DNA from: an uncultured Deinococcales bacterium
GTDB lineage: Bacteria; Deinococcota; Deinococci; Deinococcales; JAAFIG01
Direction: 5' to 3'
Assembly (NCBI GenBank): GCA_964247135.1
Contig: CAXTTL010000038.1
Coordinates: 1 to 26,852 of the forward strand
DNA: 26,852 bases
Shown: positions 1-20,583 of the stretch, one piece after another
How positions within the stretch are numbered: the first letter of the stretch is position 1
Layout: each line of letters begins with the position of its first letter
Program-made: the position numbers and the translations under genes
The notes under the pieces: model-generated
Told to the model about the DNA's origin: nothing
What the model saw: only the letters and a program-made list of their open reading frames with translations
Database searches by the model: none

Positions 1-1530
1 CGGGTGAGCCACCGCCACGTTCATGACGCCCAACATTTCGCCGCCCGCCTGAATTGGGATGGTCGCCCCAGCCCAGTTTTTGGGAATCAAGGCTCGAGAG
101 GCTTCGAGGATGTTGGGGTTGTTGTAGAGGTCTGGGATGCGCTGAGAGGTTTTGGTCTGCATGGCGATGGTCGCCACGCTGTGCCCTGGACGGTCTGAGA
201 CTTTTGGCAGTTCGCTAAGCCAGCCCAGCGAACTCGAGACCATCAGTTTGTTGTTTTCGGGGTCGAACAGCACGATGCTGCCCGCGTCGGTCTCGAGGCT
301 GAGCAGCACTTCACCGAGCAGGCTGTCGGTCAGTTGTTGAATGTCATCGGTTTCGCGCAGTCGCCAAGCGATTTTTTGGATCAGTTCCAGTTCGCGCTGG
401 TACTCTTGGGCTTCGGTCACGTCTTGTTTGATCGCAATAAAGTGCAGGGTTTCGTTCTGTTCATTTTTGACCGGCGTCACGGTCATCTCTTCGATGTATT
501 GACTGGCGTCTTTGCGTTGGTTGGTCAGCCGCCCATGCCAAACCTGACCGTTCAGAATCGTGTCCCAGAGTTCCTGGTAGGCACTTTCGGATTGCTGTTT
601 TGATTTTAAAAAATTCAGATGTTGACCCTTTGTTTCCTCCAGGCTGTAACCCGTCAGGGCATTGAACGCCGAGTTCGCCCATTCGATCAGACCAGCCTTG
701 TCGGCAATCACGATGGCATTCGCGGCAGACTCGAGGGCAACCGCTTGAAGCTTTAACTGCGCCTCTGCCAGGTAGCGCTCGGTGGTGTCGTGAACAATCG
801 AGTAGACCATCGGACGACCATCCACGGTGACCGGACCGCTGTAAATTTCGACGTTGCGAATTTCAGAATTCTTAAGCCGATGCCGAGACTGAAAGAATTC
901 GCGTTGCCCTTGAAAAGCATTTTGGACATCCTCGAGCAGGAGTTCAAATGGCAAGGTGTGAATATCAGACAGGTTAAGCTGGGTAAATTCCTCGAGCGAA
1001 TAACCGTAAAATTCGCAGGCGGCAGGGTTGGCATCGAGAATGTCCATTGTTTGGGGATCAATAAAAAGCATGAGCGCATGGTTAGAGTAAAACATCGAGC
1101 GGTAACGCCATTCGCTTTCCCGCAAGGCAACTTGGGTGCTTTGAAGGGTTTTGCGCTCGTTTTGATGGGTTAAGGCTCGGGTGACGGTGGTCGAAAGTTG
1201 TGCCAGGTGTTGCGGGGTTTTGAGGATGTAATCTTCCATGCCAGATTTCATGGCGAGCACCGCGATCTCTTCGCTGCCGGTCAAGGTAAACATGATGACC
1301 GGACAATCGGGGTACTGCGCTTTAACCCGTTTTAAAACCGCAATGCCGTCGCTAAATCCAAGGTGATAATCGGTGATCACCAGATCAAAACCGCCCCGCA
1401 ACACGGCAGTCTCGAGCGCAGAGACATTGGAGGCTTCAAACATTGAGATATCTTCAAATGACTGACGCAAACTTCGTTTGATCATGTGCAAATCGTCTGG
1501 ATTGTCGTCTACGAGCAGAATATTTGGCAA
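1..1530 (-). CDS. Hybrid signalling protein, REC-PAS-PAS-GAF (partial; 3' end runs off the window)
   Basis: Hand translation from TTG 1530 is open to position 1, so it has no stop and is missing from the ORF track. N-terminal receiver: PNILLVDDNPDD...DLVITDYHLGFSDG...PVIMFT...GMEDYILK. PAS1: ESEWRYRSMF...DANPAACEFYGYS...SIVHDTTER. PAS2: ALESAANAIVIAD...WANSAFNALTGYS...WHGRLTNQRKD...IAIKQDVTE. A GAF-like segment follows (...IPIQAGGEMLGVMNVAVAHP). An alternative in-frame TTG exists at 1572. Confidence 0.88.
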   Translation of the reverse strand, partial: MPNILLVDDNPDDLHMIKRSLRQSFEDISMFEASNVSALETAVLRGGFDLVITDYHLGFSDGIAVLKRVKAQYPDCPVIMFTLTGSEEIAVLAMKSGMEDYILKTPQHLAQLSTTVTRALTHQNERKTLQSTQVALRESEWRYRSMFYSNHALMLFIDPQTMDILDANPAACEFYGYSLEEFTQLNLSDIHTLPFELLLEDVQNAFQGQREFFQSRHRLKNSEIRNVEIYSGPVTVDGRPMVYSIVHDTTERYLAEAQLKLQAVALESAANAIVIADKAGLIEWANSAFNALTGYSLEETKGQHLNFLKSKQQSESAYQELWDTILNGQVWHGRLTNQRKDASQYIEEMTVTPVKNEQNETLHFIAIKQDVTEAQEYQRELELIQKIAWRLRETDDIQQLTDSLLGEVLLSLETDAGSIVLFDPENNKLMVSSSLGWLSELPKVSDRPGHSVATIAMQTKTSQRIPDLYNNPNILEASRALIPKNWAGATIPIQAGGEMLGVMNVAVAHP

Positions 1531-1545
1531 GTTCTCACCGATTAA

Positions 1546-1572
1546 ATTATAAGGTCTTGTTGGCGGTATCAA
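1546..1572 (-). promoter_or_regulatory. Possible sigma70-type promoter for the REC-PAS-GAF gene
   Basis: Minus-strand TTGATA (1572-1567), 15 nt, TATAAT (1551-1546), 15 nt upstream of TTG 1530. The spacer is short. Confidence 0.35.
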
Positions 1573-1575
1573 TGT

Positions 1576-1989
1576 TCAATTGACGTGCGGTAGATGGTTC
1601 CATTTGAGCCAAAAATCGCTCGAGGCTTGGGTGATGGCTTCCATGTGCTCGGGCAGGCTCGGTTTTTCCAGATAACCGTTCGCGCCCAGATCGTAGGCGC
1701 GTTGCAAATCCTTGGGTTCGGTGCTCGAGCTGAAGATCACGACCGGTACGTGTTTTAATTCTGGATGTTGTCGAATCCAGGCTAAAACCTCGAAACCCGA
1801 ACGTTTTGGAAGATTTAAATCGAGCAGCACCAGTCGCGGACGGACTTTATCGGGATTCTGAAAATATTCAATGGCAGCCTCTCCGTCGGTCACGACCTCC
1901 AAAAGATGGGCAAGCTCGAGTTTAGCGAATGCCCTTTTCAAGAGAAAAAGGTCGTCTGGCGAGTCTTCGACAATCAATATTCTGCTCAT
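1576..1989 (-). CDS. Single-domain response regulator, Rcp1/phytochrome-associated-type receiver (137 aa)
   Basis: ILIVEDSPDD, LVLLDLNLPKRSGFEVL, PVVIFSSS, AYDLGANGYLEKP and C-terminal FWL, typical of Rcp1-like receivers. ATG 1989 overlaps the kinase stop (ATGA) and has a GGGAG RBS. Confidence 0.92.
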   Translation of the reverse strand: MSRILIVEDSPDDLFLLKRAFAKLELAHLLEVVTDGEAAIEYFQNPDKVRPRLVLLDLNLPKRSGFEVLAWIRQHPELKHVPVVIFSSSTEPKDLQRAYDLGANGYLEKPSLPEHMEAITQASSDFWLKWNHLPHVN

Positions 1990-4900
1990 GATGTCTCCCT
2001 GGGTTGATTCAGCGACAACCAAAAATGGCTGCCCTTCCCCGGGATCGATGTTACACCAATTTGTCCACCCATGCGTTCCACACCACGTTTAACAAAAGCC
2101 AGACCGATGCCGCTGCCCGGGTATTCGCTGATGCCGTGCAGACGCTCGAAGGGTTGAAAAATGCGTTCCAGGTTCTGGCTATCGATACCGATGCCATTGT
2201 CCTGAATATGAAGTTTGACGGTCTTGGTCTGCGGGTCAGTTTCAGCCCAGATCGTAATTTCTGGTCGAATCCCGACAGATGAGAATTTAAGACTGTTGCC
2301 CAGCAAATTAACGATGATTTGGCGCAATACCGTTTCCCTCGCCAGAACCGTAGAAAAATGCCCTTTTAAGTGAATCGTGGCATTTCGCCGTTCCCTTTCG
2401 TCTTCAAAATCATGAATCAAATCACCCAGCAGCGGCTCGAGCGCGATTGGGGTCAGTCGGATTTCGGCTTTGCTCAGGCGGCTGTACTGAAGCAAATCGG
2501 TGATTAAAATGTCCATGCGTCCCGCCGCACCGACGATACGGTTGACAAAATCTTGTCCCTCTGGTGGCGTGCTGGTTTGGTAATCTTCCAGAAAAGCCCG
2601 TCCAAAACCCTGAATGGCATTCAGTGGACTTCGCAGATCGTGCGAGACGCTCGAGGTGAACGATTCGAGTTCGAGGTTGACTTCGTTGAGGCGCTTGGTG
2701 CGGTCTTGAACGCGCTGCTCGAGTTCGGCGTTCAGTCGCTCGAGGGCTTCCTGGGCGTTTTTGCGGCTTGTCACATCGCGCATCGTTGACTGAATCTCAC
2801 GCAACTCTTTTGTTTGCGGATCATAAATTAATTTGGAGAGTGTCTCGATCCAAACATAATTGCCGTTCTGATGCCGAATCCGAATGGTCGCGCTGAAATG
2901 GGTTTTGTGTTTTTCAACGGCATCTTGACGAATAGCTGCATAAGAAGCTTGGTCGTCGGGATGGGTGACATTAAGACTCAAGACCGTGGCTATTTCATCA
3001 GGACTGTAGCCCAAAACATTGCTTGCCGACGGTGAAACGTAGCGAATTTGTCTGTCAGTGGTCGAAACAATAATGACATCCTGGGCATTTTCGGTAATGG
3101 TACGGTATAAACGTTCACTCTCCTCGAGTTTTTTGAGGGCAGTCACCCTTTCGCTGATATCACGCACCGTTGATTGAATCTCTGTTAATACTCCAGTGTC
3201 ACTGTCTCGAATTAATTTTGAAACAGATTCAACCCAAATATAATGTCCATTTTGATGACGCACTCGAAAACTCGAATTGATATACTCACTGCGATTTTCA
3301 AGTGCCTCTTGACGGATGTTAAGATAACCATTCAGGTCGTCGGGATGGATAAAATCCATCCCAAAAACCTTATCGATTTGAGATTTGTCATAACCAAAAA
3401 CTATTGTTGCCGACGGCGATATAAAATGGATTTTGCTATCGGGGCTGGTGACAATAATGACGTCCTGAGCATTTTCGGTAAGGGTTCTATACAGCCGCTC
3501 ACTTTCCTCGAGTTTTTCTTGTGCAAGGATACGTTCAGTAATATCACGTGAAGACACTTGCAATTCTTGAACCTCGCCGTGTTCATTGCGGTTTATTTTT
3601 AAGATCGATTCGATCCAAATATATTCACCGTCTTTGCGACGCAAACGGCTTTCAGAACGAAACATGTTCAGACCTTTTTCAAGGGCTTCTCGGCGACTTG
3701 CCATGTGCTTTTGAAAGTCGTCGGGATGCAGGTAATTTATGATTGGCGTCAGCATCATTTCTTCTGGCTCGTAACCAGAAAACATTTTGACTGACGGTGA
3801 GACGTACAAAATTGTTGTATCCAAATTGGTAATAAATGTGACATCGTAAGAATTTTCGGTAATGGCGCGGTACAGCCGCTCGCTTACCTCAAGTTTTTCT
3901 TGCGCCACAACTTTTTCACTGATGTCACGTAATGTAATTTGAAGTTCTCTGGCATTTCCAGCTTCATCACGAATGACTTTAACCACAGATTCAGTCCAGA
4001 CATAGCTGCCATCGTGACGACGGGTTCTGTTCTCTGAACGAAAAACGCTATCACCTTTTTCAATCGATTTACGACGATTGATTTGGTATCGCTCGAGATC
4101 ATCGGGATGAATGTAACTAAAGGCTTGAGTCTGTTCAAGTTCTTGTGGCTCATAACCAAGTATGTTTTTCGCCGCCGGCGAAACATATTGAATCATAGAA
4201 TCCAGACCCACAATCAAGATCACATCGTGAGAATTTTCGCTGATCGTGCGGTACAGACGCTCACTGCTACGAATCGCCTCCTGAATTTTGTGGCGCTCGG
4301 TAACATCGGCATAAAAAATCAGTATCCCGTCCGGGTTTGGGTAAATCCGATTCTCGAGCCATCGCGCCGAGGTCGATGAAGGGTCATCGATCACCGAACT
4401 GATGTTTTGATCCATTGCCCTTTGGCAAGCCCGCCCAAAATCGGTATCGAGCGCGTTTGGAAACTCTTGCCAAATGTTGTGACCAATGATGCTCGAGGCG
4501 TCGCGTTCCAAAAGTTTTGCACCGTTGGTATTGATAAACGCAAAACGCCAATTGCGATCAATCACAATCAAACCCTCGGTCATGGATTCGATCATGCTTT
4601 TAAAGCGTTCGCTGCCACGGCTGCCGCTGAGGTTGCGGGTCACCACCAAATACGTGACCTGCCCAACTTGCAAACTGATCTTTTCAAAGATCACCTCACC
4701 CCAATACCGGTAACCATCCGAACGGGTCAACCAACCCAAATGGGACGCCCGACCCGTTAACTGGGCTTGTCTGAACAAATCTTCGGGATTCCAAGTTTCT
4801 TGGCTGACAAAACACTGCGCCACAGGTTTGTTTAAAACCTGATGACTCGTGAATCCATACATTCGAGCCGCATCGGCATCCCAAGAACGCACCAAACCGT

Positions 4901-5213
4901 CCGCATCCAAACCAAAGATCGCGTACTCGACACTTCCACCGACCAATCTTTGAAATTCGTTCAGATGCTCGAGTTCACGAGATGCCAGTTGATCTTGGGT
5001 ACGGCGCGAACGAAGCACAAAAAAGTAGATCAAGCCAGAACTGATGAAGCCAAAAACAATGTCCAGAATAATAGCCAAGTTCTCGAGTCCACTTTGACCA
5101 AAAAGTACCAACAAAAGCTTATCCGCGAACACAGACCAGAACATCGCAAATAAACCATATGAAAGCGCGATACGCAATTCTGGTCGTAAGGGGTTCAATG
5201 GATTTCTAGACAT
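1986..5213 (-). CDS. Membrane-anchored multi-PAS sensor histidine kinase (2 TM, about 6 PAS/PAC, HisKA, HATPase_c)
   Basis: Two N-terminal hydrophobic helices and repeated SERLYR..ENxxDV...HPDD...RDI(T/S)E PAS/PAC units. H-box [11 protein letters not shown]-box [10 protein letters not shown]1 DNGIGI, F-box [10 protein letters not shown]2 GSGIGLA. Confidence 0.95.
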
Positions 5214-5428
5214 AAAAATGAATTGAAAACACCTTTCATAAAGTGCGGCGCGTCAAAACTGAACTGGCTTTCAAAACAAAGTACTCAAACGTTATTGTCA
5301 TAATCAGCATAGTGTAGTGAGACTTAAAACTTTATTACCGCTGATTTCACCATCACTTCTGCCAAAACCTAAACGATCAATATCAACCCCAAATGAAAAA
5401 ATCGTGTCCCAATGGGGATTTTCGGTGT

Positions 5429-5546
5429 GCTATGACATTCTTGACCACTACCACCCTGCCTCGGTTTCTGAGCAAACATCAAACCCAAAACAACCAGAGG
5501 TCACAAAAAGTGTTCTCAAAACAACTTGAGATTATTCTTTAACCAT
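5429..5546 (-). pseudogene. Probable decayed third copy of the secreted-peptide gene
   Basis: Collinear blocks shared with one or both intact copies: ATGGT (5546), CTCAAGTT (5530-5523), CTTTTTGTGACC versus CTTTTCGCAACC, TTGCTCA (5475-5469) and GGTGGTAGTGGT (5455-5444). TAA at codon 5, a later frameshift and a degraded RBS. Confidence 0.5.
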
Positions 5547-5569
5547 TCCCCAAGCAGATTGTCAAAACG

Positions 5570-5603
5570 AGGATAATGTTGTGGCACTGAACAGACAATG
5601 AAC
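5570..5603 (-). promoter_or_regulatory. Promoter with 11-bp-period direct repeats (SARP-type architecture)
   Basis: Minus strand reads GTTCATTG-tct-GTTCAGTG-N9-TATCCT. It aligns without gaps to 6091-6124. Confidence 0.55.
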
Positions 5604-5607
5604 AACG

Positions 5608-5635
5608 GTCTGGACTCACTCGAGCGAATCCAGAC
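5608..5635. other. Imperfect inverted repeat downstream of the peptide genes (possible terminator or stabilising hairpin)
   Basis: GTCTGGACTCA-CTCGAG-CGAATCCAGAC, with 9/11 arm pairing around a central CTCGAG. A second inverted repeat CAAACTCG...CGAGTTTG lies at 5661-5690. No strong U-tract. Confidence 0.35.
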
Positions 5636-5707
5636 GCGCAGTTAAAATACCTTGATTGGTCAAACTCGAGTTGATTGAAGAACGAGTTTGTTGTTGCTTG
5701 GTCGGGC

Positions 5708-5827
5708 TTATGGATGTGGAGTAACGCTTCCACCACCACTACCACCACCGATTGGATCGGCATGAGCAATTGAAAGGGTTGCGAAAAGAGCGACCAGAAC
5801 CACAAAAACTTGAGCGAATTTTCTCAT
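5708..5827 (-). CDS. Small secreted peptide precursor A, 39 aa: MRKFAQVFVVLVALFATLSIAHA-DPIGGGSGGGSVTPHP
   Basis: Hand translation; not in the ORF track. AAGGAGG RBS 6 nt before ATG 5827. Classical Sec signal peptide (basic N region, hydrophobic core, A-H-A cleavage site). Paralog of 5943-6062. Confidence 0.88.
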   Translation of the reverse strand: MRKFAQVFVVLVALFATLSIAHADPIGGGSGGGSVTPHP

Positions 5828-5942
5828 GACTATCCTCCTTGGTGCTTAACAAACAGAGAACACATTTTGGCGTTGGATAGTCACTAAGCAATCAACCATC
5901 GAAACATTAGCCTGCCAGAAATGAAGCTAGACGTATCGCTGC

Positions 5943-6062
5943 TTATGGACGTGCGCTGCCGCCACCACTACCAAGACCAGTCGAATATGGATCAGCATGG
6001 GCAATCGAAAGGGTTGCGAAAAGAGCGACCAGAACCAAAAAAACTTGAGCGAATTTTTTCAT
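5943..6062 (-). CDS. Small secreted peptide precursor B, 39 aa: MKKFAQVFLVLVALFATLSIAHA-DPYSTGLGSGGGSARP
   Basis: C-terminal part of track ORF 5943..6269. The true start ATG 6062 is supported by an AAGGAGG RBS at the same 6-nt spacing as copy A. Sec signal peptide with A-H-A site. Confidence 0.88.
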   Translation of the reverse strand: MKKFAQVFLVLVALFATLSIAHADPYSTGLGSGGGSARP

Positions 6063-6090
6063 TACCATCCTCCTTGGTGCTTGCCCGTGA

Positions 6091-6136
6091 AGGATAGATT
6101 TGTGATACTGAAAAGCGGATGAGGTGTACACTGAAC
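6091..6136. promoter_or_regulatory. Divergent control region between the peptide genes and the regulator
   Basis: Minus strand: GTTCAGTG (6136-6129) ... CCTCATCC-gct-TTTCAGTA-N9-TATCCT (6096-6091). Plus strand: candidate -10 TACACT at 6127-6132 overlaps the GTTCAGTG box. Confidence 0.5.
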
Positions 6137-6157
6137 AACTCGGCGGAGGTGAAAAAC

Positions 6158-8062
6158 GTGCATCGTATTTTGGAACATGTATTGGTGGGCAATGAAGCTG
6201 GTGCATGGGCACTGTACCAGCACATTGACCTACCTTCTGCCCTCGAGGATCGTTGGGCTGGTTGGGCATTGATCAATTTAGAGCGGCATCTCGAGGCAAA
6301 AGATTTATTGCTTCGATCTGTGCAACGTGGTTGTAAAGAGGCTCGAATAGAGTTGGCTACTGTTGAACGGTTGCTCGGAGATTTCAAGGCGGCACGTTTG
6401 ACATTGGACGGACTAGAGCACTTCACTTTTCCAGAACCGTTTGATGAAGCCTTGTATTGGCGTGAAATGGGTGTGATTTATTTATCATTAAGTCAGTCAG
6501 AATTTGCACTGACAGCATTACATACTGCATGGGATATCGTTCAGCGCGAACCTAATCTTCAATACCTCTATGCGGCAGTGGCACAAAGTCTTGGTGTTTT
6601 TTTTCTGTCGCAACGTCAATACCGTCAAGCGGCACATTACTTTTCCGTAGCACTCGAAGGGATTTTGGTGCTAAACCGAGAATTGCGAATCCGTTCGCAG
6701 CGAGTAGTGTGTCATATCTACCTTGGCGCATTTTTGGAGGCAAAGAACGATCTTGATTTTCTTGAACAACACATTGCGAATCATCCTACGTTGCGAGGGC
6801 AAATGGTCTATTACCAAGGTCTGTTGTTCCGCGCCACCGAAACCTGGGCAGAATCAGAACAACATTTTCTAAACGCCGCCAAACTCGCTCGAGCCGCAGA
6901 AGAACCCGAACTTGCGTTTTATGCCGAAATCAACGCCGCCACGGTCATGGTCATGCAGAATAAACTCGAGCAGGCAAGGATTTTGCTGGTTCGAGCCAAA
7001 AGCATCGCCCACAGCCCCAGAGATCACGCCACCTGGAGTTGGCGCAAAGGCTATCATTTGCTGCACTCCAAACCCTTGGAAGCCATGCCATTGCTCGAAT
7101 CTGCGGCGGCAGCCTTTGAAGGCATGGATTTGCCTCGAGAAACCCTGGCGTGTTGGTTAAACCATGCCGAGGCTGCCAGACGTGCTGGGTTGCTCGAGCA
7201 GGCGACGCAATCCTTGCAAACGGCGGTGGATGTGACCAGCACCGCCGATGATGCGTTTGCGGCGATAGAGCTGGCGTTGTTGCCCGATTTAAAAGCTTGG
7301 TTGAGCCAGCTCGAGCCAGTTTGGCAAAACATTTTGCTGCCCAAAAACCCTGACGCTAGCGTTCAGGTGCTCGAATTGCTGACGCTTGGCAAGTCGGAAT
7401 TGCGGGTCAACGGCAGGGCAGTCAGTTTGCGCATGGCGCGTACTGTCGAAATTCTGGCGTTTTTACTGAAAAAACCGTATCGAACCAAAGCCGAAATTCT
7501 GGTGGGTTTGTTTCCAGACAGCGATCCCGAACAAGCCATCAATTATTTTCACAAAGCCAAGCAACTCTTGACCGAAGCCATCCCCAGCCTAACGATTGCC
7601 TTTGATGTAAGGCGCAAAACCTACAGCGTGAAGGCTCAATCAGATTTGCAAACCGATTTTATACACTTTCAGTCTTTGCTCAGTGGACGTCGGGATAATA
7701 ATGTTCTAGAGGTACTGAATGCCTACACGGGGGCATTTTTGCCCCATGCGAACAGCCAGTGGGCAATTGAGGAGCGCGAAGCTTTGGCTTGGAACGTGGT
7801 TAAAATTGGCTTGGAAACACTTCAAAGATGGTACGAGGCGGGCGAGGATCAAAAGTGCTTGTCCTTGGCTGTTCGGCTGCTCGACATTGAACCGTACAAT
7901 CCAGCCCTTTCCGAGTACCTGGTCACGGTCACGTTGAGGCTCGAGGGTGAGGTGGCGGCAAAACGCGAGTTGCAACGGGCGAACCAAAAATTTTTGCTCG
8001 AGGTGGGTGAAGTGCCGCTCGAGTTGCGTCAATTGGGCAAGAGGTTGCTTCATCTGAACTGA
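6158..8062 (+). CDS. TPR-repeat transcriptional regulator with C-terminal winged-helix and BTAD (SARP-like) module, 634 aa
   Basis: Likely start GTG 6158 with GGAGGT 7 nt upstream (the track starts at 6119). About 400 aa of TPR-like helical repeats (e.g. AVAQSLGVFFLSQRQYRQAAHYFSVAL, YYQGLLFRATETWAESEQHFLNAA). Then LELLTLGKSELRVNG...EILAFLL...LFPD (SARP/OmpR-type wHTH) and YTGAFLP...W...R...LLDIEPYNP (BTAD-like). Confidence 0.85.
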   Translation: MHRILEHVLVGNEAGAWALYQHIDLPSALEDRWAGWALINLERHLEAKDLLLRSVQRGCKEARIELATVERLLGDFKAARLTLDGLEHFTFPEPFDEALYWREMGVIYLSLSQSEFALTALHTAWDIVQREPNLQYLYAAVAQSLGVFFLSQRQYRQAAHYFSVALEGILVLNRELRIRSQRVVCHIYLGAFLEAKNDLDFLEQHIANHPTLRGQMVYYQGLLFRATETWAESEQHFLNAAKLARAAEEPELAFYAEINAATVMVMQNKLEQARILLVRAKSIAHSPRDHATWSWRKGYHLLHSKPLEAMPLLESAAAAFEGMDLPRETLACWLNHAEAARRAGLLEQATQSLQTAVDVTSTADDAFAAIELALLPDLKAWLSQLEPVWQNILLPKNPDASVQVLELLTLGKSELRVNGRAVSLRMARTVEILAFLLKKPYRTKAEILVGLFPDSDPEQAINYFHKAKQLLTEAIPSLTIAFDVRRKTYSVKAQSDLQTDFIHFQSLLSGRRDNNVLEVLNAYTGAFLPHANSQWAIEEREALAWNVVKIGLETLQRWYEAGEDQKCLSLAVRLLDIEPYNPALSEYLVTVTLRLEGEVAAKRELQRANQKFLLEVGEVPLELRQLGKRLLHLN

Positions 8063-8071
8063 TGGTTCAAA

Positions 8072-8090
8072 ATTCAGTGCGTGTTCAGTG
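8072..8090 (+). promoter_or_regulatory. Direct repeat ATTCAGTG-cgt-GTTCAGTG, a further copy of the putative regulator box
   Basis: Same octamer and 11-bp period as 5585-5603, immediately after the regulator stop codon. No convincing -10 at N9. Confidence 0.4.
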
Positions 8091-8153
8091 TCGTTTTTGG
8101 TTTCAAATGCGAACCTCCGTTAAAAATCGACTTGAACTTGACTGGCGCAACGC

Positions 8154-8783
8154 TCAATTGATCCGTTGAGATTGGTGTTCGGTTTGGGGGTTTTGACTGA
8201 GCACCGACCAATCGCGGGTTTGGGTTCCGAGCGCCCGCTCGAGGAACGCCTCGACAATTTGTGGGTCAAATTGGGTTCCGCTGTGACATTGCAATTCCTC
8301 GAGGGTCGAATGGATGCCCCAGGCTCGAGAGTAAGAACGTTGCGAGAGCAGGGTGTCGTAAACGTCGCAGATGGTCAAAATTCTGGCTTCGATTGGGATT
8401 GCCTGCCCTGCCAGGTTGGAGGGGTAGCCAGTGCCGTCAAAGCGTTCGTGGTGGTGCAAAATTGCTTTGAGCGCGTTTTCACGGATGCCTGGGATGGCTT
8501 TTGCCAGGGTGAAGCTCCAGTAAGAATGGGTTTTGACGATTTCCCATTCGTTGAAATCGAGTTTTCCTGGTTTGGTCAGGATTTTTTCGGGGATCACCAG
8601 TTTACCGATGTCATGAAGGTAGGCGGCTTGAGACAGGGCTTCCAGGGCATCGTCATTTAAGCCGAGCATTGTACCGATGGATTCGACCAGGGTTACCAAA
8701 CGCCGTGTATGTCCGACGGGTTCAATGCCCCGTTCCTCGAGTTCTAAACCGAAAGCACAAATCGTGTAAATATCGGGCAGCAT
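8154..8783 (-). CDS. Stand-alone HD-GYP domain protein (putative cyclic-di-GMP phosphodiesterase)
   Basis: GHTRR, LHDIGK, ILTKPGKL, HHERFDGTGYP, ARILTICDVYD and GTQFDP motifs; AGGAG RBS. Confidence 0.93.
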   Translation of the reverse strand: MLPDIYTICAFGLELEERGIEPVGHTRRLVTLVESIGTMLGLNDDALEALSQAAYLHDIGKLVIPEKILTKPGKLDFNEWEIVKTHSYWSFTLAKAIPGIRENALKAILHHHERFDGTGYPSNLAGQAIPIEARILTICDVYDTLLSQRSYSRAWGIHSTLEELQCHSGTQFDPQIVEAFLERALGTQTRDWSVLSQNPQTEHQSQRIN

Positions 8784-19440: not shown

Positions 19441-20583
19441 ATGAACTACCTCCTGACCCTCATCACCCTGATCCTGCTCAATCTTGGAATTGAGGCGCTG
19501 ACGGCACCAGCCAGCAGCCGTCACAGCCAAAAGATTGCCCTCTATGAACCCTTTGAACGCCCCCAACTCGATTGGAATACCTTGCAGGGCAACTGGGTCA
19601 TCAAAGACGGCTGGCTCGAGGGGCGCGACCCCAACAACATCAGCCTGTCCCCGATCAACGCCCCAATCCAGCCGTATCACCTCGAGACCAAACTCGAAAT
19701 TCAGCCCAAGGCAAAAATGGGCTTGATCTTCAACGCCCAGTTCCCCGAGCGCCTGGCGGCGGCACAAGCCGTTCAACTCGAGCAACTCGGGCAGGGTTTG
19801 ATGGTGCGCTGCGGGTTTTATGATCGAAACGGAAACTGGCAGTTGCAAGACGAGGTCAAGCTTCGCTTCACAACCACCCAGTACAAGCTACTCGTCAGCG
19901 TTGACGCGTTTGATTACAGTGTTTCACTGAACGGCGCGACGGTCTTAAAACAGCAACCCCTGCGTTACCGTGGTGGTTTGCCAGGCTTGATGGCAACCGC
20001 CAAAAGCCGTTTTGACAACCTTCAACTCGAGCCGAGTAACGCGCAAACCAGCGTGGTGGCTGGCGACTCGAGCCTCTGGACGACGGTGGGCGGAGCCTGG
20101 CAAATCGAAAGGGCGCTGATTCGCCAGCAATACCCGCAAGGTTACGACCGCAGCCTGATGTTCAACCCGCAACCTTTTGCGCCCAAACGCCTTGTCTTGC
20201 GACTTCGTCACACCCAGGGCAGCGGCGCGGGACTGATTTTCAATGCCAGCAACGACTTTAACCTCGGTGATGCCCAGATGGTGCGTTTTGATGAAACCGG
20301 CAAACGCCTTTTTTGGGGGTATTTCCCAACCGACGGCGAGTTTGTCGGTCAAGGTGCCGCCAGTGTTTCATCGGTCGGCATGACCCCGCACCAGATTCAA
20401 ATTGAGCTGGAGCATGATAGCTATAGCGTTTGGCTCGATGACAGACTGCTGGCTCGAGACATCAAACTTCATTCTAGCCAGGGTTATCTCGGCGTGACCA
20501 CCTCCAAGAGCGCCGCACAGTTCAGTGTTCTGGATGTCAGCACCAGCCAGGGCATCAAGCATTTGATCGGGGCAACACCGTGA
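19441..20583 (+). CDS. Secreted protein with two tandem beta-jelly-roll (DUF1080/concanavalin-like) domains
   Basis: Signal-like N-terminus from ATG 19441 (exact start uncertain). Internal duplication: WNTLQGNWVI/WTTVGGAWQI, MGLIFNA/AGLIFNA, YSVSLNG/YSVWLDD, GGLPGL/QGYLGV. Confidence 0.7.
   Translation: MNYLLTLITLILLNLGIEALTAPASSRHSQKIALYEPFERPQLDWNTLQGNWVIKDGWLEGRDPNNISLSPINAPIQPYHLETKLEIQPKAKMGLIFNAQFPERLAAAQAVQLEQLGQGLMVRCGFYDRNGNWQLQDEVKLRFTTTQYKLLVSVDAFDYSVSLNGATVLKQQPLRYRGGLPGLMATAKSRFDNLQLEPSNAQTSVVAGDSSLWTTVGGAWQIERALIRQQYPQGYDRSLMFNPQPFAPKRLVLRLRHTQGSGAGLIFNASNDFNLGDAQMVRFDETGKRLFWGYFPTDGEFVGQGAASVSSVGMTPHQIQIELEHDSYSVWLDDRLLARDIKLHSSQGYLGVTTSKSAAQFSVLDVSTSQGIKHLIGATP

Follow-up and report, generated by a model that had tools for sequence, protein, structure and literature searches.

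Short direct repeats with a period of 11 bp lie around a regulator gene in a 26,852-nucleotide stretch of DNA from an uncultured Deinococcales bacterium (contig CAXTTL010000038.1), here called the window, which is the entire contig C38 of a 5,091,702-base genome in 386 contigs. We propose that these repeats are the operator of the adjacent gene product, a regulator combining a tetratricopeptide repeat (TPR) array with a C-terminal DNA-binding module of the SARP type (TPR-SARP), and that this regulator activates two promoters from the position typical of SARPs, namely P2, which precedes two genes for secreted peptides, and P1, which precedes the gene of a PAS-rich histidine kinase; the probability of this reading is put at roughly 70%. 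Operator binding, activation and peptide sensing are all inferred computationally. The original prediction, made from the letters of the window alone, had named four repeat sites and taken them for the operator of the regulator beside them. All four are present, with their coordinates re-checked (Table 1), and the predicted assignment to the adjacent regulator draws support from the fold of its DNA-binding domain, from the promoter geometry and from the recurrence of the sites at orthologous loci and of their plan in the distant family.

Passages of PMC10936776 give the spacing between the direct repeats of SARP targets as 11 or 22 bp and put 8 bp between the 3' repeat and the -10 box. They describe the afs box of AfsR as a pair of 11-bp repeats extending over -40 to -19, where every AfsR protomer touches the first 8 bp of one repeat, and they quote TTCAGC as the -35 element of afsS, located inside the upstream repeat. 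P1 can be parsed as GTTCATTGTCT / GTTCAGTGCCA / CAACAT / TATCCT, that is 11 + 11 + 6 bp followed by the -10 box, and its repeat box covers -40 to -19 if TATCCT is set at -12 to -7; the nine bases (N9) after the 8-mer and the 8 bp after the heptamer are one and the same spacing. Judged from the sequence, the predicted geometry of P1 is that of the AfsR afs box as these passages give it, and the arrangement fits their general rule as well, in agreement with the SARP-like position that had been claimed for the sites. P1 and P2 alike carry 11-bp repeats, the 3' one standing about 8 bp away from the -10 box, a comparison that concerns presence only. P2 has no -35 element (TCCGCT stands at that position) and its -10 box begins 34 nt ahead of the ATG, and a consensus scanner found no canonical -35/-10 promoter in 5100-8300.

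The open reading frame (ORF) of the regulator spans 6119-8062, with GTG 6158 as the most likely start, backed by homologs of 634 aa. A TPR array occupies residues 1 to ~395 (Pfam TPR_12, E 1.5e-9), and an OmpR-type winged helix-turn-helix (HTH) followed by a BTAD occupies residues ~400-634. The Pfam search of the protein returned neither a Trans_reg_C hit nor a Response_reg hit that would denote a receiver domain, and NCBIfam has no family for it; the C-terminal domain was identified only via structure because the Pfam, NCBIfam and PDB sequence searches gave it no name. The model of the full-length protein reached a pLDDT of 86.9 and that of residues 400-634 one of 91.6, the C-terminal part being modeled as a four-strand sheet, three helices and a beta-hairpin wing, then a helical bundle. 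With this domain Foldseek retrieved AfsR (8k60_J, E 1.1e-9, TMq 0.69) and EmbR (E 2.3e-8), and VIA aligned it to AfsR (8k60 and 8hvr, Z 17.4 and 16.6 over 229-232 residues) and to EmbR (Z 15.3 and 15.2), the aligned spans for both proteins being 227-232 residues overall. AfsR and EmbR were the only whole-domain structural matches, the next rows being generic TPR proteins at Z <=12.9 over ~89 residues, and the AfsR structures so matched are of the SARP domain within RNA-polymerase complexes. The nearest ESM Atlas cluster (score 0.99) is a 637-aa Deinococcota cluster named "BTAD domain-containing putative transcriptional regulator", with Pfam BTAD on 75% of its members. On these models the C-terminal 235 aa are predicted to have the SARP fold, winged HTH then BTAD, and the designation wHTH-BTAD used in the original prediction is right in view of the AfsR and EmbR matches, with the addition that the module is C-terminal and is accompanied by no ATPase. 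Trans_reg_C was found in none of the 17 other large ORFs of the window that were scanned for a winged HTH.

Two records entitled "MAG: Deinococcales bacterium", L001 and L002, encode regulators 83% and 79% identical to that of the window, and all the sites recur in both. Three-way alignment of the P1 region left 81 of 207 columns invariant, among which GTTGTTCATTGTCTGTTCAG forms an unbroken run of 20 invariant columns between diverged flanks. The invariant parts of P2 are TTCAGTGTAC, CTCAT, TCAG and AAAT.TAT.CT, together with the distal repeat plus TAC; in the gap 3' of the regulator 24 of 108 columns are invariant, TTCAG is kept, and each genome has an exact GTTCAGTG. L001 possesses one peptide gene instead of two and keeps P2, the terminator and P1, and in both L001 and L002 an orthologous kinase gene follows P1. 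The original prediction was to be given up if the motif were not conserved next to orthologous regulators; the motif is kept at both of these close orthologs.

Single copies of the 8-mer are not clearly enriched in the window, where matches with <=1 mismatch numbered 32, a count attained by 4 of 100 shuffles; the expectation is 23.1 +/- 4.5. With <=2 mismatches the tandem form TTCAKTG-N3-KTTCAGTR matched 4 times in the window, where 0.33 matches were expected, and none of 100 shuffles reached this number. Throughout the 5.09 Mb, TTCA[GT]TG-N4-TTCAGT[GA] has 2 hits, at 5602(-) and 8073(+), which flank the regulator gene, and of the 250 tandem sites in the genome with <=4/16 mismatches to two units of GTTCAGTG, these two alone show <=1 mismatch. 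The tandem form at this locus is not a product of chance. Two more exact copies of GTTCAGTG, at 19925-19932 (-) and 20520-20527 (+), are single, lie in coding region and have no tandem partner; these isolated copies are probably due to chance. The relaxed pattern TTCA[GT]-N6-TTCAG-N11-TAnnnT, evaluated over 41 tandem sites, has 6 genome hits vs 1 at N10 and 0 at N12. Five promoters elsewhere follow it, C63:4115(+), C173:425(+), C181:7720(-), C181:3223(-) and C222:7774(-), three of them having TTCAGACC-CATTT in common and three preceding lipoprotein-like genes; this regulator or a paralog may control them.

The regulator belongs to a large family. A profile search with the C-terminal domain gave 3887 cluster representatives at E <=0.001 and 127 clusters (50% identity) at E <=1e-30, and nearly all of the best 150 representatives measure 580-680 aa with the domain at ~405-640. 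Family matches at E <=1e-20 occur in 178 of 364 Deinococcota genomes, often several in each, some 300 loci altogether, and three in the genome of the window. A word-indexed homolog search badly understated the family size with 8 proteins, the window's own included; of two metagenome scans the first found no loci and the second 4 distant or partial ones. After removal of the duplicates L005, L007, L008 and L024 and of the truncated L003, 51 non-redundant loci (numbered within L001-L056), taken from Deinococcota genomes and from metagenomes, were examined. A small ORF with a signal peptide, nearly always divergent, stands beside the regulator in 35 of the 51; the same detector fired in 33 of 600 windows of 1400 bp drawn at random from this genome. 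The family's mini-ORFs encode a signal peptide, an A-x-A cleavage-like site plus (D/E/N/G)P, and a stretch rich in Gly ahead of a short tail (e.g. ...GNGITSRP or ...PTVCTRC), the tails being of ITxRP, Pro/Thr-rich or C-terminal CxxC type.

To score the promoter plan at these loci, pairs of 8-mers with an offset of 11 bp that lie exactly 9 bp ahead of any TAnnnT were compared for identity. In relatives of 30-40% identity, at least 6 of 8 positions agreed in 15 of 36 upstream regions of peptide genes, and all 8 in three of them; the threshold of 6 was reached by 0.9% of shuffles, 2.3% of 1358 natural upstream regions preceded by a Shine-Dalgarno sequence and 0.3% of random windows. The -10 box of the relatives usually starts 26-37 nt ahead of the peptide-gene ATG, and the plan is seen in 10 of 20 clades (delimited at 55% identity). 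The repeat itself differs by lineage, the forms being GTTCAGTG, CGTCAGCA, CCAATACG, GCTAAGTG, CCTAAACG and ACTACACG, and its number also varies, with three repeats in L012 and five in L013. Cultivable Deinococcus carriers hold loci of the CCAATACG or the GCTCAGCG type, and the layout of P2, three repeats and a -10 box, is the same in L017-L019. The predicted recognition helix of the TCAG class reads NYFH[KQ]A[KR], that of the CCAATACG class NYFHQVRYD, and that of the T[AG]CACG class YFHTARYE. By this qualitative comparison, which is uncorrected for kinship, the predicted helix varies along with the class of the repeat.

Boxes were also encountered ahead of signaling genes adjoining the regulator. 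In L017 and L018, from a sister genus, the gene of a PAS-HisKA kinase, located just after the regulator, has a box and a -10 box ahead of it, an example of this type being TCTCAGTG-AAG-TTTCAGTG-N9-TAGCTT; L032 has a box and a -10 box ahead of a gene for a GAF protein, and L019 has a box ahead of the kinase gene without TAnnnT at N9. Taken with P1 and with the HD-GYP-type neighbors described below, these loci make control of an adjoining signaling gene look like a conserved second output. The 3' box of the window occupies the position of the sister-genus kinase promoter and is regarded as a retained predicted binding site.

Table 1 Coordinates of the repeat sites and associated features in the window.
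Feature	Position	Strand	Description
P1 promoter	5570..5603	minus	GTTCATTG-TCT-GTTCAGTG-CCACAACAT-TATCCT; reads towards the PAS histidine kinase gene
P1 upstream repeat (DRup)	5603-5596	minus	GTTCATTG
P1 downstream repeat (DRdown)	5592-5585	minus	GTTCAGTG, followed by N9
P1 -10 box	5575-5570	minus	TATCCT
P2, peptide promoter	6091..6136	minus	three repeats and a -10 box
P2 proximal part	6124-6091	minus	CCTCATCC-GCT-TTTCAGTA-TCACAAATC-TATCCT
P2 distal repeat (= lone repeat)	6136-6129	minus	GTTCAGTG
P2 middle repeat	6124-6117	minus	CCTCATCC
P2 proximal repeat	6113-6106	minus	TTTCAGTA, followed by N9
P2 -10 box	6096-6091	minus	TATCCT
Candidate -10 box of the regulator's own promoter	6127..6132	plus	TACACT; shares 4 bp with the distal P2 repeat
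Regulator gene	6158..8062	plus	634 aa; GTG start; Shine-Dalgarno sequence GGAGG at 6145-6149
Intragenic box	7667..7685	plus	TTTCAGTC-TTT-GCTCAGTG; codons FQSLLSG, wHTH/BTAD junction
3' box	8072..8090	plus	ATTCAGTG-CGT-GTTCAGTG; 10 bp past the regulator stop, in the convergent gap
Peptide gene A	5943..6062	minus	MKKFAQVFLVLVALFATLSIAHA then DPYSTGLGSGGGSARP; divergent from the regulator
Peptide gene B	5708..5827	minus	MRKFAQVFVVLVALFATLSIAHA then DPIGGGSGGGSVTPHP; tandem duplicate of A
Intrinsic-terminator-like hairpin	5608..5635	minus	12 pairs, tail CGTTGTTCAT; ends the peptide operon
PAS-rich histidine kinase gene	1986..5213	minus	1075 aa; Pfam PAS, HisKA, HATPase_c; 2 transmembrane helices

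In the mechanism that we propose, the repeat, with consensus GTTCAGTG, core TCAG and an 11-bp period, would be the operator on which two or three SARP domains of the TPR-SARP regulator sit next to each other and bring in RNA polymerase through sigma adaptation of the AfsR type. The bound regulator would turn on P2, the promoter of both secreted-peptide genes that has no -35 element, and also P1 at the head of the PAS histidine-kinase operon. Since the distal P2 repeat overlaps, in the opposite orientation, the -10 box and start region of the regulator's own gene, its occupancy would probably damp transcription of the regulator; the overlap between the lone repeat and the candidate TACACT had been noted originally and is indeed there, and this candidate box is conserved in L001, L002, L017, L018 and L019. 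The TPR half would most likely gate DNA binding on the re-imported mature peptide, and the intragenic and 3' boxes would serve as additional binding sites. The cassette could then act as an autoinducing, RRNPP-like peptide switch feeding two-component and cyclic di-GMP (c-di-GMP) signaling.

Several observations weigh against this proposal. P1, the best of the sites, is not the peptide promoter, because it lies downstream of the peptide terminator and upstream of the PAS histidine kinase, and with its fair -35 element (TTGTCT) it may fire without an activator. Between the P2 repeats CCTCATCC and TTTCAGTA 3 of 8 bases agree, a background-level score, and the spacing from the distal to the middle repeat is 12 bp, not 11 bp; this proximal pair is supported by its position and by the orthologs and is poor as a repeat alone. 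The 3' box lacks a TAnnnT at N9 in all three orthologs and faces a convergent gene. Regarding the protein, Pfam BTAD (PF03704) scores E 0.097 and 13.5 bits vs a cut-off of 22.1, PDB sequence searches match no SARP, and the N-terminal ~395 residues match generic TPR superhelices only, with no specific RRNPP hit (RapF appears in a profile search at E 0.18 only). As for the family, the fixed-geometry search gave no good repeat pair in 10 of 20 clades, and the loci are related, so that the cross-locus counts are not independent. The plan of an 8-mer pair at N9 from TAnnnT occurs in 2.3% of the ordinary upstream regions of this very genome; therefore, other regulators with direct repeats at this position seem to exist here and such promoters seem to be common. 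OmpR/PhoB-type response regulators, too, use 11-bp direct repeats.

In an explanation that we consider unlikely, the repeats are true operators read by another regulator that binds direct repeats, be it an OmpR/PhoB-type response regulator, the paralog on C35 or C165 or a REC-SARP of the COG3947 type, with adjacency being incidental. The pho-box plan is likewise an 11-bp direct repeat that replaces the -35 element, the genome holds three family paralogs including those on C35 and C165, a second class of TTCAG promoters (TTCAGACC-CATTT..TAnnnT) stands ahead of lipoprotein genes, and REC-SARP regulators do occur in Deinococcus, going by passages of PMC3564903. The box, however, moves with the regulator gene through rearrangements, being found ahead of the peptide gene and of the kinase gene on either side, its sequence tracks the predicted recognition helix of the adjacent regulator, a copy of it is embedded in that regulator's own coding sequence, and the C35 paralog has different repeats, all of which favor the adjacent TPR-SARP protein as the reader. 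Were this protein to bind the repeats mainly as a repressor or roadblock relieved by the peptide or another ligand, which we find improbable, its targets would be P1 with its own -35 element, the regulator's own promoter and elongation at the intragenic and 3' sites. Such action would suit TTGTCT in P1, read from the sequence 17 bp upstream of the -10 box and matching the -35 consensus in 4 of 6 positions (as the -10 box does its own), since the repeat box covers this element and the spacer, and it would suit the distal P2 repeat lying over TACACT and the lack of TAnnnT at N9 from the intragenic and 3' boxes. P2 without a -35 element, in a region devoid of a canonical promoter, fits dependence on an activator instead; moreover, -40 to -19 is the position of AfsR activation, and the characterized SARPs named in the passages of PMC10936776 are all activators.

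Very little credence is given to the repeats having no regulatory role, as leftovers of the peptide duplication, as part of the T-rich terminator tail or as inverted ends of a former mobile cassette. It is true that the upstream P1 repeat starts within the terminator tail, that the region ahead of peptide gene B resembles a decayed copy of P2, and that the outer sites, 5585-5603 and 8072-8090, are mutually inverted with 15 of 19 bases agreeing and so bracket the cassette as an imperfect inverted pair. The cassette, nonetheless, has no transposase or integrase inside; the N9 distance to TAnnnT stays fixed in 10 of 20 clades despite differing repeat sequences, the 20-nt run of P1 is invariant amid diverged flanks, and L001, with its one peptide gene, keeps every site. 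The mobile-element interpretation of the outer sites was rejected.

The intragenic box was compared among loci, and 8-mer pairs at the same position were located in L001, L002, L013, L017-L019, L029, L032, L041-L043, L048, L053 and L056, the site being present in about half of the clades. The intragenic pair of L029, GTTAAGCG-GCT-GCTAAGTG, can be set beside its own promoter repeats GCTAAGTG and ATTAAGTG, and the leucine codon there is CTA where TCAG-class genes have CTC, a synonymous switch; L056 has ACTACACG both intragenically and in its promoter, and L041 has GTTGCACG against GTTGCAGG. Over the 20 clades the best match of intragenic to promoter repeats averaged 5.05/8 within the own locus vs 4.25 across loci (permutation p 0.00125). 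No TAnnnT stands at N9 from the intragenic box of the window. Across clades the intragenic pair co-varies with the promoter repeats. The predicted site might act as an internal promoter, as a roadblock or through DNA looping.

The product of peptide gene A consists of a signal peptide followed by a 16-aa Gly-rich peptide. Peptide gene B is probably co-transcribed with A, and no good repeat box was found upstream of it (best 2/8). The terminator-like hairpin is situated immediately upstream of P1, into which its tail runs, and is conserved in L001 and L002. In L002 the second peptide gene, at ~5545-5670 (-), is frameshifted at a T run of 6 T vs 7 in the window, which denotes either a pseudogene or a homopolymer assembly error.

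Beyond the terminator, the PAS histidine kinase is likely the gene served by P1, through a leader of 357 nt, and response-regulator genes come after it. The leader (5214-5569, minus), counted from P1 to the kinase start, is partly conserved with L002, for example in TTGGGGAATGGTTAAAGA and GACACGATTTTTTCATT; it has no conserved reading frame, and an Rfam search of 5000-8400 gave no match. Candidate small ORFs in the stretch from P1 to the kinase, MVKE and MFAQKPRQ... as well as MKKSC... on the plus strand, were dismissed, their frames not being conserved between the window and L002. The kinase is unlikely to be the sensor of the peptide, since its transmembrane helices number only 2 and the loop between them is 7 aa long.

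On the other side of the regulator, a convergent HD_5 (HD-GYP-like) gene was observed at 8154-8783 (-), and an HD_5 gene also follows the regulator of L003, a distant homolog with only 34% identity to that of the window, at 857-1966 (+), which hints at a conserved link to c-di-GMP turnover. A short hairpin is present near the end of this HD-GYP-type gene in the window (~8150-8185), L001 (~6320-6345) and L002 (~7990-8015), with arms CTCAA...TTGAG in the window and CTCAG...CTGAG in L001 and L002, the pairing being kept through two-sided changes; it is likely a terminator common to the convergent genes. The 3' gap as a whole folds no better than its shuffles (z 0.03).

Compared with known systems, the plan of the sites is already known, being that of the SARPs, which are exemplified by AfsR, ActII-ORF4, DnrI and RedD of Streptomyces and EmbR of Mycobacterium. 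An OmpR-type winged HTH followed by BTAD is common to both, as are 11-bp direct repeats laid over the -35 element and spacer with the first 8 bp of each unit conserved, a 3' unit ending 6 bp ahead of the -10 box, i.e. 8 bp from the heptamer, and a target promoter without a -35 element, and the repeat core resembles the TTCAGC of afsS, so far as the passages of PMC10936776 describe these traits. Those passages place the SARP module at the N-terminus of the described proteins, whereas it is C-terminal here and follows the sensor; the N-terminal placement is regarded as the customary architecture and not as what defines the fold family. Further differences are that no NOD/NB-ARC ATPase separates the SARP and TPR parts, that the host is from Deinococcota and not Actinomycetota with sequence similarity under the Pfam cut-off, and that the predicted targets are a secreted mini-peptide gene and signaling genes, not antibiotic clusters. 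With OmpR/PhoB and the pho box the regulator shares the class of DNA-binding fold and tandem 11-bp repeats standing in for the -35 element, but it lacks a receiver domain, carries a BTAD after the winged HTH, and is proposed to be controlled by a TPR sensor rather than by phosphorylation.

The RRNPP proteins of Bacillota (Rap, Rgg, NprR, PlcR, PrgX) offer a parallel in function. Here, as there, a cytoplasmic TPR protein is itself the transcription factor, a propeptide gene with a signal peptide adjoins it, several paralogous receptor-peptide pairs occur per genome, and the predicted box of the receptor in the peptide promoter amounts to the wiring of an autoinduction loop. The differences lie in the output, which is a C-terminal SARP module instead of an N-terminal XRE-type HTH or the 3-helix bundle of Rap, in the operators, which are direct repeats and not palindromes, in the TPR part, which has no specific structural match to RRNPP proteins, and in the distribution of the family outside Bacillota. 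What is new is the architecture with TPR first and SARP last without an ATPase, the phylum, and the pairing with a secreted mini-peptide. No description of TPR-SARP regulators paired with peptides in Deinococcota, nor of peptide-based cell-cell signaling in this phylum, was found in the literature, subscription journals being outside the coverage; the proteins that passages of PMC1274311 and PMC3564903 deal with are unrelated ones or REC-SARPs.

Overall, the comparison suggests, as a tentative possibility that we rate somewhat below even odds, a peptide quorum-sensing system spread through Deinococcota, in which the TPR-SARP protein would sense the re-imported Gly-rich peptide, bind the repeats particular to its lineage and switch on the peptide gene together with a signaling gene, be it for a PAS kinase, a GAF protein or an HD-GYP protein, with feedback through an operator in its own coding sequence in about half of the clades. 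Such a system would be analogous to RRNPP in function, with a different DNA-binding module and outside Bacillota. If the operator prediction holds, the site plan and the tracking between repeat and recognition helix would provide an operator code for a large regulator family that is only generically annotated, and activation by SARP-type sigma adaptation would reach beyond the antibiotic clusters of actinomycetes. The sites would help to define regulons and to construct reporters that respond to peptide in cultivable Deinococcus species, and the findings would point to peptide-based cell-cell signaling in Deinococcota.

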